NCBI GenBank assembly: GCA_000004985.1 | Contig: GG738944.1 | Strand: one strand, 5' to 3' | DNA from: Naegleria gruberi | Lineage: Eukaryota | Length of the DNA stretch: 39,119 bases | In this document: one piece after another, positions 27,301 through 32,630 of the stretch | Layout: each line of letters starts with the position of its first letter | Numbering within the stretch: position 1 is the first letter of the stretch | Made by a program: the position numbers and the translations under genes | Notes under the pieces: model-generated | Database searches by the model: none | What the model saw: the letters and a program-made list of their open reading frames with translations, nothing else | Told to the model about the DNA's origin: nothing

Positions 27301-30300
27301 AATCTAAACAGTGCTAAAGTTGGAAACAATATAGAAGGCAAAGTAATAACTTGGGGAGAAGCATCACAGATTGAAGCTGAAAATGTTCATGGTTATGTCA
27401 GTGCTCCAACAACAAATACATTTATCAATGTTCATCAAGATATTGAGGGATCACTGAAAGCAAGAGGAGAAAATACTTCTATTGTTGTTGGTGGAAATGT
27501 TAATGGTGAAATCTATTCCAAAGCAGAAAAAGAAAATAAGATCAATGTTATTGGTAATTTGAATGGTAAAATCATTGAAAAATCTGAAAATCTTCAACTC
27601 AATATTGGAAGTATTTCTGGAAATGGCTTGGTACAATCCGAATCTTCTAACTTGAATGCTGTTATTGTAGAAAAAGAAATGGCAGGTAAAGTTTTCTTAA
27701 AAGGAGACACCTCTATTCTCAAAGCAAATAGTGTGAGTGGATCTGTTGTATCTTCTTCAAAAGATTTCATTGTAAAGGTAGAAACCGATATGAGTGGAGA
27801 GGTTGCATCTTTAAATACCAACTTGAATTTCGATGTTGGAGGAAATATGAGTGGTAGTCTTCAATCAACAACAGAAACTGGAACAAGAATTAAGGTTGGA
27901 CAAACCATGTCAGGTTCAATTACAAACAAATCAAAGAATTCTGACATCACAACTGGTGATATGAGTGGTCGCTTACTTTCTGTTTCCGATTACAATTTTA
28001 TTACAACAAAGGACTTGTCTGGAGATTTATTACTTGGTGGTAAGAGTTCCTCAATCATAAAGGCCAACAATATATCTGGAGATGTACATAGCTTTAATGA
28101 GCAATCAACACAAGTTAATGCTAACTCTCTTTCAGGAAACCTTCATTCTGAATCAGAAATCAATACTATTAATATTGTAAACAATGTAGAGGGTGAAATA
28201 TCAACAAAAGGAAAGAACACATTTGTTGATGTTGGTGGAGACGTTGAGGGAATGGTATTTGTAAAAGGAGAAAATAGTGTCATCAAGTCAACTGGAAACT
28301 TACATGGAAGAGTTATGGTGAAAGTTTCTAACATATCTAATTTAGAATTCGAAAATGTCCAAGAGGGATCATCGCTGTATTCTGAATCCAAGACTGGATA
28401 TTTAACTACCAAGAATTACTCCTCTTCTTCTGCTGCATTTTTAACTGATAACGAATTCACATTAAAGGCAGAATCAGTGAATAATACTGGTACATTAACT
28501 GGCACCCAATTACTAATTCAAGCAGAAAAAGATATCAATAATAGTGGTGGTATGTCAGCAAAGAATCTGCAATTGGAAGGTCGGACCCTTAATAACTTTT
28601 CTAAAATGACGGCAGATAATATCAATATTGAAACAACATCTGTTAAAAACTCTGGAGAAATGACAAGTGGAAACCAAATATTTATTAATTCTAAATCAGT
28701 TTCCATGACGAATAATTCAATTACTAAAGCAAAAGATATAATGGTGAATGATGCAACCAGTGTAAATGTGCAAAAGGGTGCTTTTGTTCAATCCGAGAAT
28801 AATCTTTCTGTAAAATCTGGTACTTTTCAAAACGAAGGATGCTTAAAAGGTGAAATAACTTATTTAGAATCAAAAACTATTTTTAATGATGGATTAATCA
28901 AAGGAAATGAAGCAACAATCATTACAGACTCTTTATATCTTGGAAAAATTAGTGATATTAAGAGTGAAAAGCTTGGTATTAAGACTGAGTTTATGCATGA
29001 TACTAGTTCATCAACCATAAATGCAAATTCTATTGGTATACAGAAGACAGGATCATCAAATTTGAAATCCCAAATAACAGCAAATGATCTCTCACTTGTA
29101 ACTGATGATTATAATTTAAATGAAATGGACAATCTTAAAATTAAGAAAGATTTTCATATCAATATGAAAAATGCTGATAAGGTAGTCGATAAAGAAATCA
29201 AGTTGGATAATATTGGACATTTATCAATGGAAGTTAATAGTTTCAAAAACAATTCCACAATTTCAGGTAGTACTTCTGTCTATTCAACTAATGATATTGT
29301 GAATACTGGTAAAATAGTTGGAGAGAAAGTAGTCCTCGATTCCAAAGATGGAAATATTGATCTTTTTAAAGGACAAATTCATGGAAAAGAGTTGGAACAA
29401 GTAGTAGCAGGAAAAAAAATTATTCTACAAAAGGATAAATCTTCATATGGAAAAGGAAGTACAGATAAAGATGGAAAATATATTCCAAGTAGAAAAGACA
29501 TTATTTTCAAGTCTGGAGAGGGAGACATTGATTTTTCTAGAACGATAATTGATGCTTCTGGAGAAATAGAGTTAGTGGCAACACAAGGGAAGGTAATGGC
29601 AAATGGCTCACAAGTAAGAGGAGGAAATATTCTTTTCAGTGGCACAAAGGGAGTGGAGTTCAACCCAGTAGCTGGTAATCTATTTCCCAATTTTAAATTT
29701 CAAGAATACGCACCAACAAATCCTCAAAAGGGAACCATTAATTTTATTAGCACTGAAGGAAAAGTTTCAGCTCTTAATTCCAAAATAACCAGCAACCATG
29801 GAACAAACATTTATGGTCATTTGGGGGTTGATGTTTCCACTGCTGATATTAAAAGTCGACATGGTGATGTCAACATTAGCTCAAAGCTTGGAGATATAGT
29901 TGGAAGAAATGTTACTATTAATTCTGCAAAAGATACAACCATTATTTCTGAGAATGGTAATGTAGATATTAGCTTTGAAAAGAAATATTATGGAAGAAGA
30001 CCAGAATTCCATGTCTCTAAAATCAATGCAAACAAATTGATTGTTGAAGGTAATAATATTGATATGCGTGCTGCAGACATTGAAACTAAAGAAGGAGGTA
30101 AAATACATGCAACTGCAAATATTACTGCTGATTCCCAAATTGAAACTTATGTGAAAAGAAGTTGGAGTAGAAGTGGATTCTTATGGTTTTCAGGAGAATC
30201 TGGATATGAAGAAGATGCAGTTCAAGCAATTACTCGTATCAAAACCAATGGTAAATTCCAAATATTAAGTGATACTGGTAATATTTCTGCCAAAGGTATA

Positions 30301-32630
30301 CAAATCGCAGATGATAAACAAAAAGCATCGAATGTGGATATGATTGCAGAGAAAGATATCAATTTGAATGCAGTTACTGCTCGTGTTCACCATTCAGGTT
30401 CATCCTATTCATGGTTTGGTCTAAACTCATCTTCAAGAAGTGGTTACAACACTGCAGGTAATTTTGCTGTAGTACAAGCTTCTGATAATATCAATATTCG
30501 TTCAAAATCTGGAAAGATTGAAGGACAAGGTGTAATTCTCGATGCAAAGAATATTTCTGTTCGGGCTAAAAAAGGAATAGATCTTAAACCATATGAAATT
30601 GAGACATATGAACACATTCGTGAAAGAGGTTTCACCGTTGGCTTGGGAAATGCACCAAGTTTGATAAATAATAGCAAGCAAGTATTTTCCTCTGTTTCCT
30701 CAATGGGTAAGGGTGACCCTGGTGCAACTGGTTTTATAAGTGATGCAGTTGGAGCAGGACTCGGTTTATATAATATGGGTGTTGGTCTAGCTCAACTCTC
30801 ACTCTGTAATTTTGACATGTTGGTTGATGAAGCTTTGAAATGTATCAGTCCAAGTATTGGTTTTTATGATAATGAGCAAACATTTTATCAAAAACAACAA
30901 GTATTAGGAAGTATAACATGTAACAACTTGGAAGTTACAGTTGATGATGATGATGGAAAAGCATCTATTGCTTCTAACATACAAGTTAGTAATAGAACAG
31001 TAATCAATGCCACTAATGTTGAATTTAATAATGCACAACATGATACTAGAACAACAAGCAGATCAACAACATTTGGTGTTCAATTAAATATTGGTTCATT
31101 GTTAACTGGAGGTACAGGTGTTCCTATTACAGTTTCAGGTTCTCACAATGAATCAAAGGGAAGTACAAAAAATAATCAAGCAGCCAATATAAACTTGGGA
31201 GATACTCACTCTGTAAGAAATTCTACAAAGATTCATAATAAGGGAAATTCAATCCATATGAATAGCACATCTGGTGGAGATGTAAAGATCATTGATGAAG
31301 ATATGCAAAACCAACAAGAATCAACATCATCAGGTTTTAATTTTTCTGTGACAGGAACACTCAGCTCTATTTCATCTGCCTCAGTTGGAGCTCACTATGA
31401 AGAACATGATCATAAAGTTACAACTCAAGAAGGAAGAGCAAAAACAACAATTATTGACAAAAAAAATCATGTTGAGCAAGAAAAAATTGAAAAACAAGAT
31501 TATCATCATGACTTTGGAATTGGTTTCCAATATTCTCATTCGTTTGAAGATAGTACAAGTCCAGAAATCAATTTACCTCTCAAAGTTTATGGTCAATTTG
31601 GAGATATGAAATTTAGAATAGAATTGCCTCCTCTAGATATGTGTGAAAGATTCCAAAAAGGAGCTAATATAATCACAAATGCTGTTAATTATAATTTTGA
31701 TAGAGATGCTCCAAACAAGATATTCAAATTTGAAAATAAGCAAGATGAAAAAAAGGCAGAAACTGATCTGAGGAAAATGCTAAAAGAAGGAACAAGTTAT
31801 GAAGAATCCCTCTTGCGAGTCCAACAAAAATATCAAGTTTATACATATGAGCAAGCTGAGAAAAGAAATAGGGAAGAAGGAAATATGGAGAAAGAAACCA
31901 AAGTCCTAATTAAGTTAATCAACAATGCCATAGAAGAATTGGAAAACACTCCCGAAAAAGATGAAAAAGAAAAAGAAGGACCTAAGGAGATCTCAGGAGA
32001 CGATTTAGATGAGAAAGAAAAACCTAACCTACCAGAAATTTTAACAAAACTGTTTAAAGATATTGGAATAGGTGTTATCAGTGAAAATCAAGAACTTATC
32101 AAAGATATTTCTAAAAAAGTTGGAGGGTCCGTGTTTACAGCTATAATGAGGAAAATGCCAACTTCTTTAAAATCTAGCATCTTAGGTATAATTATGAGAA
32201 CAAAAAGTGTATTCGGAGATTTGGATATTAGTTCTGCTGACTTTGAAAATTTCCTTCCTGAAAAAACACTTATGAAAACCATTAATAACTCGAAGGAAAC
32301 AGTTATTCTTAATGAAAAGTCAAAAGCAAGTACTACTTCTTCAACTTCCAAAAAAGATTTTCCAAAATCTGCATTCATGAACGCTTTAAAGGGAGTTGCT
32401 GCTACTGTTTTAGAATATTCCAATACAGAAAACAGAAAAAGAACAGTTGAGGAGGATGTGATAAGAGCTTTTCTTTCTCAATCTGTAAATTTAGGATTAG
32501 AAATTGGTGAACTATGTGTGCATTCCTATTTAAAGGATGAACCAGTATTTAACACACTTAAAGAAAAGATCAATAGTAATAGTGTGTTTGATAACGCCAA
32601 ATTAGGTCTTTTAGTTGGTTGTGCAGCTTT
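21381..32630 (+). CDS. giant (>3,700 aa) beta-helical repeat protein with FhaB/CdiA-like (filamentous haemagglutinin-type) architecture and non-repetitive C-terminal domain; frame broken at about 24843-24880; 3' end at or near gap 32631-32718
   Basis: ATG 21381 (track start 21336 is TTG). Two long ORFs (21336-24866 frame A; 24823-32724 frame B) carry the same repeat grammar. Residues about 750-2350 form 19-residue repeats (e.g. ISVGNTMTGSLNSTAKESS/ICVENDLTGSLNFKSNATD/LKIKGDLKGSVKGESTNFS). 28.47-29.0 kb has FHA-1-like units (ESVNNTGTLTGTQLLIQAEKDINNSGGMSAKNLQLEGRTLNNFSKMTADNINIETTSVKNSGEM). 30.15-30.66 kb has KRSWSRSGFLWFSGESGYEED...HHSGSSYSWFGLNSSSRSGYNTAGNFAVVQASDNINIRSKSGKIEGQGVILDAKNISVRA...ERGFTVGLG, which from memory resembles the HSEKSGFLSSS.../SGLMGSGGLGFTIGS boundary motifs of bacterial CdiA/FhaB. 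No N-terminal signal peptide in this model. Confidence 0.8.
23580..28380 (+). repeat. in-frame tandem array of about 85 x 57-nt (19-codon) beta-helix coding repeats with higher-order (about 2.1 kb) internal duplications
   Basis: Constant 19-residue register with consensus (I/L/V)-x-(V/I)-x-x-(D/N)-(L/M)-(S/T/K)-G-x-(L/I/V)-x-S-x-S-x-x-(S/N)-x over about 1,600 residues. Blocks around 25380-25900 and 27470-27900 are clearly paralogous (GNVNGSVFAKAEKTNAINVIGKLDG... vs GNVNGEIYSKAEKENKINVIGNLNG...; SGSVESSSKDFIVKIDNNMSGD vs SGSVVSSSKDFIVKVETDMSGE). Confidence 0.85.

Follow-up and report, generated by a model that had tools for sequence, protein, structure and literature searches.

We analyzed a window of 39,119 nucleotides (the whole stretch of DNA studied here, contig GG738944.1 of Naegleria gruberi; about 30% GC, seven N gaps), which contains a giant gene on the plus strand. 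The region 28440-30660 of this gene probably represents its transition from filamentous haemagglutinin (FHA)-1-type to FHA-2-type repeats. Stalks built from FHA-1 and FHA-2 are taken as a hallmark of two-partner secretion (TPS) in Gram-negative bacteria. An upstream open reading frame (ORF; 21336-24866) and a downstream ORF (24823-32724) were read as one gene split by two frame disruptions, because a 19-amino-acid (aa) repeat continues across both frame changes, and because the upstream ORF is similar, at 21678-23637, to the N-terminal ends of Willaertia proteins which also match C-terminally. The features of the gene are listed below, with the evidence for each; A1 is an alignment of 29950-31300 with 12 relatives, and A2 an alignment of the family block upstream of it. 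PSSM stands for position-specific scoring matrix, HMM for hidden Markov model, AF2 for AlphaFold2 and pLDDT for its predicted local distance difference test.

21381-24836 (+): N-terminal part of the gene, with a conserved domain at ~21678-23637, followed by the start of the repeat array at ~23.5 kb
23500-28440 (+): 19-aa repeat array, super-period 38 aa (autocorrelation and PSSM scan)
24837-24898 (+): two frame disruptions (at ~24837 and ~24896) in the same direction, ~60 nt apart, inside one 19-aa repeat unit (three-frame translation)
28447-29040 (+): FHA-1-type units of ~20 aa (hxhxAxxhxNxGxhxA), each 18-23 aa (TIGR01731, phmmer, BLASTP, hhalign, AF2)
29070-29583 (+): conserved inter-repeat module, …ADKxIDKDL…LTVNNLxNxAxIxGN…HG…RHNV…ARKGDLDF…ISGNL (A2)
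29584-29949 (+): Naegleria-specific extra beta-coils (A2 columns 535-660, filled by Naegleria alone and absent in relatives)
29851-30660 (+): FHA-2-type haemagglutinin repeat module with two predicted long beta-hairpins tipped GFLWF and SWFGL (PF13332)
30643-30844 (+): predicted helical insert (…TGFISDAVGAGLGLYN…), low confidence (A1 model residues 232-298, pLDDT <50)
30845-31730 (+): second conserved beta-rich region, ending in a boundary motif (…FGDMKFRIELPP… at 31606; A1 and famC alignments, HMM matches in bacterial relatives)
31731-32630 (+): variable charged linker, then a C-terminal domain cut by the N gap 32631-32718 (no family match)

The gene and its reading frame

Three-frame translation showed that the 19-mer pattern runs across the two frame changes from frame 3 to frame 2 to frame 1, and in phmmer searches the N-terminal ORF matched the N-termini of Willaertia magna proteins P0002, P0003, P0017 and P0019 with an E value of 1e-21, colinear with their C-terminal matches. 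The FHA-type region was translated in frame from 28441. An exhaustive phmmer search identified the window translation with 100% identity as P0001 (XP_002668841.1 / NAEGRDRAFT_82301, an N. gruberi "predicted protein"). That model is the C-terminal part of the giant gene, and it starts 3′ of the frame shifts, which leaves out the first ~1,170 residues. The predicted protein has ~3,750 aa or more and is encoded without introns. The two frame disruptions could be an assembly error or recent decay; outside of them 11.3 kb remains open in a 30% GC genome, and in Willaertia the homologue P0019 occupies one ORF of 9.7 kb without interruption, located between eukaryotic genes. The giant gene has a GC content of 0.32 and a GC content at third codon positions (GC3) of 0.20, which are the values of a neighboring gene for an epidermal growth factor (EGF)-type protein, while the bacterial contigs of its relatives range from 0.38 to 0.44 in GC. 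It is a native nuclear gene, and the nearest relatives of its family are bacterial polymorphic toxins.

The 19-aa array and the FHA-1-type block

The original prediction, which had been made from the DNA letters, placed a loss of the strict 19-mer register at about 28.44 kb. BLOSUM autocorrelation agreed with this, as lags 19 and 38 peaked in every 200-aa window from 24823 to ~28400, past which there was a weak lag-18 peak (0.10) and then no peak. A PSSM of the 19-mer, whose consensus is S-K-x-T/S-x-I-N-V-G-N-D/N-(V/L/M)-S-G-x-(V/L/I)-x-S-K, detected units only at ~23.5-28.4 kb, with one stray unit at 31 kb. The array presumably forms a beta-helical shaft. Its fragments and those of the N-terminal part had no match in Pfam or NCBIfam, its similarity to the FHA-1-like block was just 11-15 bits, and no bacterial counterpart was found for the N-terminal domain and the array.

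Past 28441 the translation contains units with Asn/Gly turns, which include SVNNTGTLTG, DINNSGGMSA, SVKNSGEMTS, TFQNEGCLKG and TIFNDGLIKG. Such turns had been predicted for units of 20-21 aa; the turns are present, and the parse gives lengths of 18-23 aa rather than that strict range. The fragment 28441-28840 matched TIGR01731 (fil_hemag_20aa) from fragment residue 3 with 22.9 bits (E 6e-5), and 28441-29040 matched it with 20.8 bits, the cutoff being 18 bits. A fragment of the 19-mer array scored nothing against this profile, and the units are more than generic low-complexity sequence. The region 28441-32040 was also compared by phmmer with 1.84 billion representative proteins clustered at 50% identity, which gave 16 matches. 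Query residues 4-215 (28450-29085) matched only three bacterial proteins in this search. They were P0013, a Marinospirillum [quoted passage not shown] with TPS and Fil_haemagg domains (full-sequence E 1.5e-7), the Erwinia protein P0015 with Fil_haemagg only (1.5e-4), and the Pseudomonadota protein P0016 with TPS, Fil_haemagg and Fil_haemagg_2 (3.1e-4). When 28441-29340 was aligned by BLASTP with CdiA of E. coli 536 (3,242 aa), which served as the reference, the score was 38.9 bits, and shuffled sequences reached 30 bits at most.

The FHA-2-type module and the regions 3′ of it

The inter-repeat module is common to the bacterial relatives P0005, P0009, P0014 and P0020, with HMM scores to them of 80-270 bits. 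Sub-threshold matches to PF13332 (E 0.054) and DUF3739 (E 0.087) begin within it, at ~29461-29658, and the Naegleria-specific coils that follow already show an FHA-2-type signal. The fragment 29851-30660 matched PF13332 (Fil_haemagg_2) with 27.6 bits and an E value of 3.7e-6, the gathering score being 22, and equivalent fragments from Willaertia (38.1 bits), Pharyngomonas (24.7) and the bacterial P0005 (23.2) passed as well. PF13332 was matched by 10 of the 13 members of A1, the best at 1.4e-12, and every other Pfam family by at most one member. Hence, the domain-by-domain scan proposed with the original prediction placed both TIGR01731 (28441-28840) and PF13332 (29851-30660) above their curated cutoffs.

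Two Ser/Gly/aromatic motifs had been noticed at 30.15-30.46 kb. They are RSGFLWFSGESGYEED at 30169-30216, with the GFLWF tip, and SYSWFGLNSSSRSGYNTAG at 30403-30459, with the SWFGL tip, and both were recovered as conserved motifs, kept in 12 relatives including the bacterial ones, with the consensus YVSxRWSxxGFL ... SSWWGL. The type of this segment was therefore predicted correctly as FHA-2-like; its start at 30.15 kb was not, since the sub-threshold signal is already seen from ~29.46 kb.

The helical insert which follows is found in the eukaryotic members and in P0005 and P0020; it is partial in P0009 and P0014, absent from P0007, P0008 and P0010, and largely absent from P0011. In the second beta-rich region the AF2 model has long strands at residues 301-410. 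Conservation stops at ~31.73 kb, past the …FGDMKFRIELPP… motif, and a variable region comes next. Within the latter, 32365-32630 aligns with residues 3074-3164 of Willaertia P0019 (E 1e-4), and the alignment ends just 5′ of the glycine-zipper segment of the Willaertia protein. This suggests that the Naegleria C-terminus, cut by the gap, is probably of the glycine-zipper type.

Comparison with CdiA and predicted structure

The best Pfam stretches of CdiA are TPS at 36-288 (4.7e-49), Fil_haemagg at 779-854, Fil_haemagg_2 at 2457-2631 and PT-VENN at 2972-3022. When profiles were aligned with hhalign, the family block 28441-29950 matched CdiA only at 334-1274, apart from one match of score 25 at 1898-1932; the best score was 47.8 (Prob 59%), and the reversed control gave 19.9. 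All six top matches of A1 fell within 1848-2368. Against the FHA-2 segment A1 reached a Prob of 84% and an E value of 7.5e-6 at residues 1962-2135, and against full-length CdiA a score of 50, compared with 14-23 for shuffled and reversed controls. In this alignment the SGFLW motif pairs with SQSGFWHTDD of CdiA. The FHA-1/FHA-2 order is thus colinear with CdiA, because the first block maps to 334-1274, inside the FHA-1 region of CdiA, and the second to 1848-2368, inside its FHA-2 region. In other words, the profile-profile comparison that had been proposed gave both blocks in the predicted order and above the controls. The predicted series of R1-like, FHA-1-like, FHA-2-like and unique C-terminal parts is upheld for the step from FHA-1 to FHA-2; the R1-like label of the 19-mers is an unproven conjecture, as they match no FHA profile. 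The sequence comparisons taken together show that 28.44-29.04 kb is homologous to the FHA 20-aa repeats and 29.46-30.66 kb to the FHA-2 repeats. In pairwise BLASTP against CdiA the FHA-2-like segment, the 19-mer array, the N-terminus and the C-terminus did no better than shuffles, and the full giant protein gave nothing significant.

The AF2 models built from the family alignments were confident and all-beta both for 28441-29961 (pLDDT 86.7, predicted template modeling score 0.80) and for 29950-31300 (82.9 and 0.75), and the second model combined short helix-type strands with long hairpins. The hairpin 63-75/81-93 is tipped by GFLWF and 142-154/159-171 by WFGL, with several further strands of 12-18 residues downstream and the low-confidence helical insert at 232-298. 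In the published AF2 model of CdiA FHA-2 a beta-helix is joined by long hairpins that form an extended sheet (PMC13625785), and the architecture predicted here is the same. The predicted beta-helix is closest to TpsA structures. Neither model had a Foldseek match in PDB at E<0.08, and phmmer and profile searches against PDB sequences gave no match.

Relatives and their variable C-termini

The gene is a member of a small heterolobosean family found in Naegleria, Willaertia and Pharyngomonas. In the phmmer search the segment ~29.85-32.0 kb matched W. magna proteins (E 4e-83 and 2e-64), a Pharyngomonas kirbyi transcript (4e-55) and metagenomic proteins. The matches outside of Heterolobosea were solely bacterial haemagglutinin-repeat/TpsA proteins or metagenomic proteins on bacterial contigs. 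Among them P0007, an alphaproteobacterial "hemagglutinin repeat-containing protein" (metagenome-assembled genome MBL8676518.1), had an E value of 2e-24 with 37% identity over 180 aa, and with the family HMM the bacterial members scored 128-280 bits. No second Naegleria species was among the 16 matches, in a library clustered at 50% identity. A word-indexed protein search gave nothing, even for the query's own entry in its collection, apart from near-identical E. coli CdiA sequences that were of no use for a diverse profile, and tblastn against plasmids gave one irrelevant match.

The Willaertia homologues are located on contigs of 101-377 kb, beside genes for NHL-repeat proteins, saccharopine dehydrogenase and glutathione S-transferase (GST), and one Willaertia paralogue is divided between two gene models, P0017 and P0018. 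The bacterial relatives have bacterial neighbors: SecA, BacA, HsdR and a Sel1/leucine-rich repeat (LRR) gene on the contig of P0009, ParA, UmuDC and MazEF on that of P0010, and NtrYX, TrkA, Dus and a bacterial GDH on that of P0005. P0005 is followed, with an overlapping stop, by a SUKH-1 (SMI1_KNR4) gene (40.1 bits). SUKH proteins make up a classic immunity family of polymorphic toxins (Zhang et al. 2012, PMC3482391). At its C-terminus P0005 (L006 3186-7525) carries a module (…YDAHHIIQ…WWNIHP…H.RIHG) that matched Col-Pyo_DNase with an E value of 0.16 and, at the level of motifs, reads like an HNH/AHH-type nuclease. This module recurs in Stenotrophomonas genomes, and a locus search with P0005 found solely that module.

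The C-termini differ among the homologues, and a variable C-terminal domain is a feature of polymorphic toxins of the CdiA type. P0004 of Pharyngomonas and the bacterial relatives P0009 and P0014 carry a class-3 lipase (Lipase_3), P0005 the nuclease-like module, P0007 and P0008 helical repeats, and Willaertia a hydrophobic segment resembling a glycine zipper. The bacterial relatives P0005, P0007-P0012 and P0014 had no Pfam TPS domain; P0008, P0009, P0010 and P0014 have Sec-like N-termini. No TpsB gene stood beside the relatives on the bacterial contigs examined.

Neighboring genes in the window

The ORFs around the giant gene resemble eukaryotic genes and encode an EGF protein of the teneurin type, LRR proteins of the ribonuclease-inhibitor type and a DUF4116 protein; one further ORF is rich in His/Pro/Asn homopolymers. 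No tRNA genes were found in the window. The 1,396-aa ORF 11041-15231 (+) has teneurin-type EGF matches to PF25024 (1e-6) and PF23106 (7e-5), both below cutoff, and a weak PKD-like match. The coding stretch 4000-5217 (+) contains His/Pro/Asn/Thr homopolymer runs, is skewed toward C over G (GC skew to -0.75), and enters a 1.6-kb N gap. LRR genes flank the giant gene at 16294-17340 and 37795-38823. The latter, a 342-aa ORF on the minus strand, is extremely rich in Asn, Leu and Lys, and its GC of 0.119 and GC3 of 0.017 are far below the ~0.32 and ~0.20 of the rest of the window. Sel1 or LRR proteins are also encoded on three of the bacterial-relative contigs examined; P0008, which is bacterial or metagenomic, is followed by four tandem LRR-protein genes (L005 7768-14235), and P0009 is preceded by its Sel1/LRR gene (L003 7992-9977). 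About 5 kb 3′ of the giant gene there is an NHL-repeat-like ORF (…YIADTGNHRIRKI) at 37461-37769 (+), and the gene directly 5′ of Willaertia P0019 also has NHL repeats (L014 4921-9624). This shared neighbor may be a conserved linkage or a coincidence.

Features looked for and limits of the similarity

The exoproteins of two-partner (type Vb) secretion, TpsA, have an N-terminal Sec signal and a TPS domain (PF05860, with NPNL/NPNGI motifs), and a gene for their partner TpsB, of the Omp85 family, is adjacent. In CdiA-type proteins the PT-VENN pre-toxin domain (PF04829) demarcates the toxin. Several of these features are missing here, which weighs against the descent of the gene from such proteins. 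Pfam scans of the whole N-terminal ORF and of its 300-aa fragments gave no TPS domain (the positive control CdiA gave 4.7e-49), and the N-terminus contains no NPN[LG] (NPNL/NPNGI) motif. A TPS-like N-terminus was rejected on these grounds, with hhalign also giving nothing but noise when the family alignment of the N-terminal part was compared with CdiA, P0013 and P0016. No signal peptide was predicted, the N-termini being hydrophilic, and there was no TpsB gene among the large ORFs of the window. The protein had no PF04829 match and no VENN string, and a different boundary, …FGDMKFRIELPP… (31606), precedes its variable region. No immunity-like neighbor was recognized; the downstream Naegleria ORFs had no matches, and the end of the gene lies in an N gap. 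Because the TPS domain, the NPNL/NPNGI motif, the signal peptide, VENN and a TpsB gene in the window are all missing, the Naegleria protein is not a TpsA by definition, even though it has both TpsA-type repeat modules.

The similarity itself has limits that count on the same side. Pfam and NCBIfam scans of the 2,602-, 1,176- and 740-aa translations gave nothing significant, with TIGR01731 at just 9.9 bits in the 740-aa scan. However, hmmscan on long biased translations (740-2,602 aa) missed PF13332 and TIGR01731, both of which were recovered by fragments of 133-270 aa, and because the fragment scans exceed the curated cutoffs the null scans of whole proteins are false negatives. PF05594 (Fil_haemagg) was never matched at E<=10 by four fragments, but this profile is insensitive, as CdiA of E. 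coli 536 itself scores 18.6 bits, under the gathering score of 21.5. The single-repeat alignments to the TpsA proteins P0013, P0015 and P0016 had just 25-30 bits with large bias corrections, and the phmmer repeat matches to them are, taken alone, suggestive rather than conclusive. In hhalign the four eukaryotic rows alone matched CdiA FHA-2 weakly, although in the same place (score 28, Prob 1.5%), the single Naegleria sequence gave nothing, and A1 against another TpsA (P0016/P0026) was not significant. Hence, the link to the classical CdiA FHA-2 depends on the bacterial intermediates and is weak for the eukaryotic sequences alone. In a neighbor-joining tree of A1 the distances were saturated and no bootstrap exceeded 0.47, and the tree did not resolve the direction of transfer. 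Finally, the Naegleria copy is broken by two frameshifts and a gap.

Discussion

We consider it likely, with a probability of roughly 0.7, that 28440-30660 is the FHA-1-type to FHA-2-type transition of the giant gene, and that haemagglutinin-repeat polymorphic toxins of bacteria, of the CdiA/FHA kind, are the ancestors of the C-terminal two-thirds of its family. Curated cutoffs were passed, the map to CdiA is colinear and the matches are bacterial, which favors the common ancestry of the repeat modules with TpsA-type repeats, as originally predicted, over convergence. Horizontal transfer from bacteria is the most likely route, and acquisition from bacteria is suggested because FHA repeats are overwhelmingly bacterial.

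If a low-complexity eukaryotic protein had come to mimic FHA repeats by convergence on a generic beta-solenoid, the 37% identity to the bacterial haemagglutinin-repeat protein P0007 would not be expected from repeat composition. The family HMM scores of bacterial members, the passing fragments, and the far lower values of shuffled and reversed controls argue the same way, and so do the non-repetitive motifs YVSxRWSxSGFLWF and SSWWGL, which are common to bacteria, and the CdiA-like order of modules. Convergence is therefore largely refuted, and we regard it as highly improbable. An origin from bacterial contamination or a chimeric assembly appears more improbable still: the scaffold is short (39 kb, with seven N gaps), and the gene is intronless with bacterial-like domain content, but its GC and GC3 are identical to those of neighboring eukaryotic-type genes (EGF, LRR and the poly-Asn/Pro ORF). 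Moreover, the Willaertia homologues lie on long contigs beside NHL, saccharopine dehydrogenase and GST genes, a Pharyngomonas transcript exists, and nothing bacterial corresponds to the N-terminal domain or the 19-mer array.

The state and the role of the gene leave more room for alternatives. The Naegleria copy could be a decaying relic, a pseudogene of an old transfer which is functionless now, as suggested by the two frame disruptions within 60 nt, the split Willaertia paralogue, and the single Naegleria species among the clustered matches. This seems improbable, since the gene is otherwise open over 11.3 kb in a genome where stops arise easily, its conserved motifs and Willaertia P0019 are intact, and both disruptions affect a repeat array in a draft assembly with gaps, a setting prone to sequencing errors. 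A domesticated structural protein, in which the FHA-type shaft serves as a giant adhesin or as a surface or cytoskeletal fiber, with a glycine-rich hydrophobic C-terminal anchor and no toxin delivery, is the alternative to be taken most seriously, even if it is on balance unlikely. It would fit the lack of a recognizable immunity gene nearby and the Naegleria/Willaertia C-terminus, which has no enzymatic signature and whose glycine-zipper-like hydrophobic stretch could be an anchor. On the other hand, the toxin-delivering branch has as its hallmarks an FHA-2 module and a boundary ahead of a variable C-terminus. A lipase occupies the C-terminal position in Pharyngomonas and in two bacterial relatives, and P0005 has a nuclease-like module together with a SUKH immunity gene.

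The 19-mer array and the FHA-1-type units would form a rigid beta-helical filament of ~60 nm, assuming a rise of ~4.8 A per coil and ~120 coils. The FHA-2-type module, with its beta-helix and its aromatic-tipped hairpins as an extended sheet, might then enter the target membrane, as proposed for CdiA, and this insertion might deliver or anchor the variable C-terminal domain, of the glycine-zipper type in Willaertia (probably also in Naegleria) and a class-3 lipase in Pharyngomonas. A bolder proposal, which we regard as rather doubtful, is that heterolobosean amoebae have a contact-dependent inhibition (CDI) system of their own, as a eukaryotic counterpart to the bacterial one. In such a system a ~60-nm FHA-type filament would be exported without TpsB or a signal peptide, its FHA-2 sheet would enter the membrane of prey bacteria or rival amoebae, and interchangeable putative C-terminal effectors, for example a lipase or a glycine-zipper pore-former, would be delivered to them, with self-protection by a putative immunity factor.

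One of the closest known systems is CdiA of E. coli 536/EC93, with which the Naegleria protein shares the series of FHA-1-type ~20-aa repeats, FHA-2 (PF13332), a boundary and a variable C-terminal domain, the colinear hhalign map (334-1274, then 1848-2368), and an FHA-2 whose predicted beta-helix carries long hairpins arranged in an extended sheet. In contrast to CdiA, it has no Sec signal, TPS domain, CdiB partner or PT-VENN, and no recognizable receptor-binding or YP domain; another conserved module is present at 29070-29583, and the protein also has a unique N-terminal domain of ~650 aa and 19-aa repeats in an array of ~1,650 aa. Its gene is nuclear and eukaryotic, and the sequence similarity is remote (hhalign Prob 59-84%). 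The TPS-less bacterial haemagglutinin-repeat toxins (P0005, P0007, P0008-P0012, P0014) are similar over the whole core, ~29.07-31.7 kb, including the motifs YVSxRWSxSGFLWF and SSWWGL and the variable C-termini, with the helical insert in P0005 and P0020. They differ in lacking the heterolobosean N-terminal domain and 19-mer array, in the Sec-type N-termini of P0008, P0009, P0010 and P0014, in their bacterial contigs (SecA, NtrYX, plasmid genes, toxin-antitoxin modules), and in the pairing of P0005 with a SUKH-1 immunity gene. The TpsA adhesins (FhaB/FHA of Bordetella, EtpA, HxuA and HMW1) differ in that the solved TpsA structures comprise TPS domains and shafts, which align to the helix part only; the Naegleria 19-mer array has no FHA-profile match, and no PDB chain was matched in sequence.

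Full-text literature searches found no description of this Naegleria/Willaertia FHA family. Passages of Zhang et al. 2012 (PMC3482391) name toxin and immunity domains that were transferred to Naegleria, and an FHA stalk is not among them. In the data described here, nuclear genes from three heterolobosean genera contain FHA-1 and FHA-2 modules that are in colinear order and exceed curated thresholds; the base composition of these genes is native, and they add an N-terminal domain and an array of 19-aa repeats, both of which are new. Teneurins are metazoan proteins derived from bacterial YD/Rhs polymorphic toxins. If the reading is true, the heterolobosean family would be the second case, after teneurins, of a eukaryote that retained the delivery scaffold of a bacterial polymorphic toxin and not merely a toxin domain. 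This likeness is an analogy only, as a YD shell differs from an FHA beta-helix, and the lineage and the known function are different. The finding also points to a poorly annotated bacterial subfamily of haemagglutinin-repeat toxins without a recognizable TPS domain, one of them paired with SUKH. In addition, CDI research has yet to settle how FHA-2 affects a lipid bilayer, and the heterolobosean proteins would allow this to be studied in a system that has no outer membrane.

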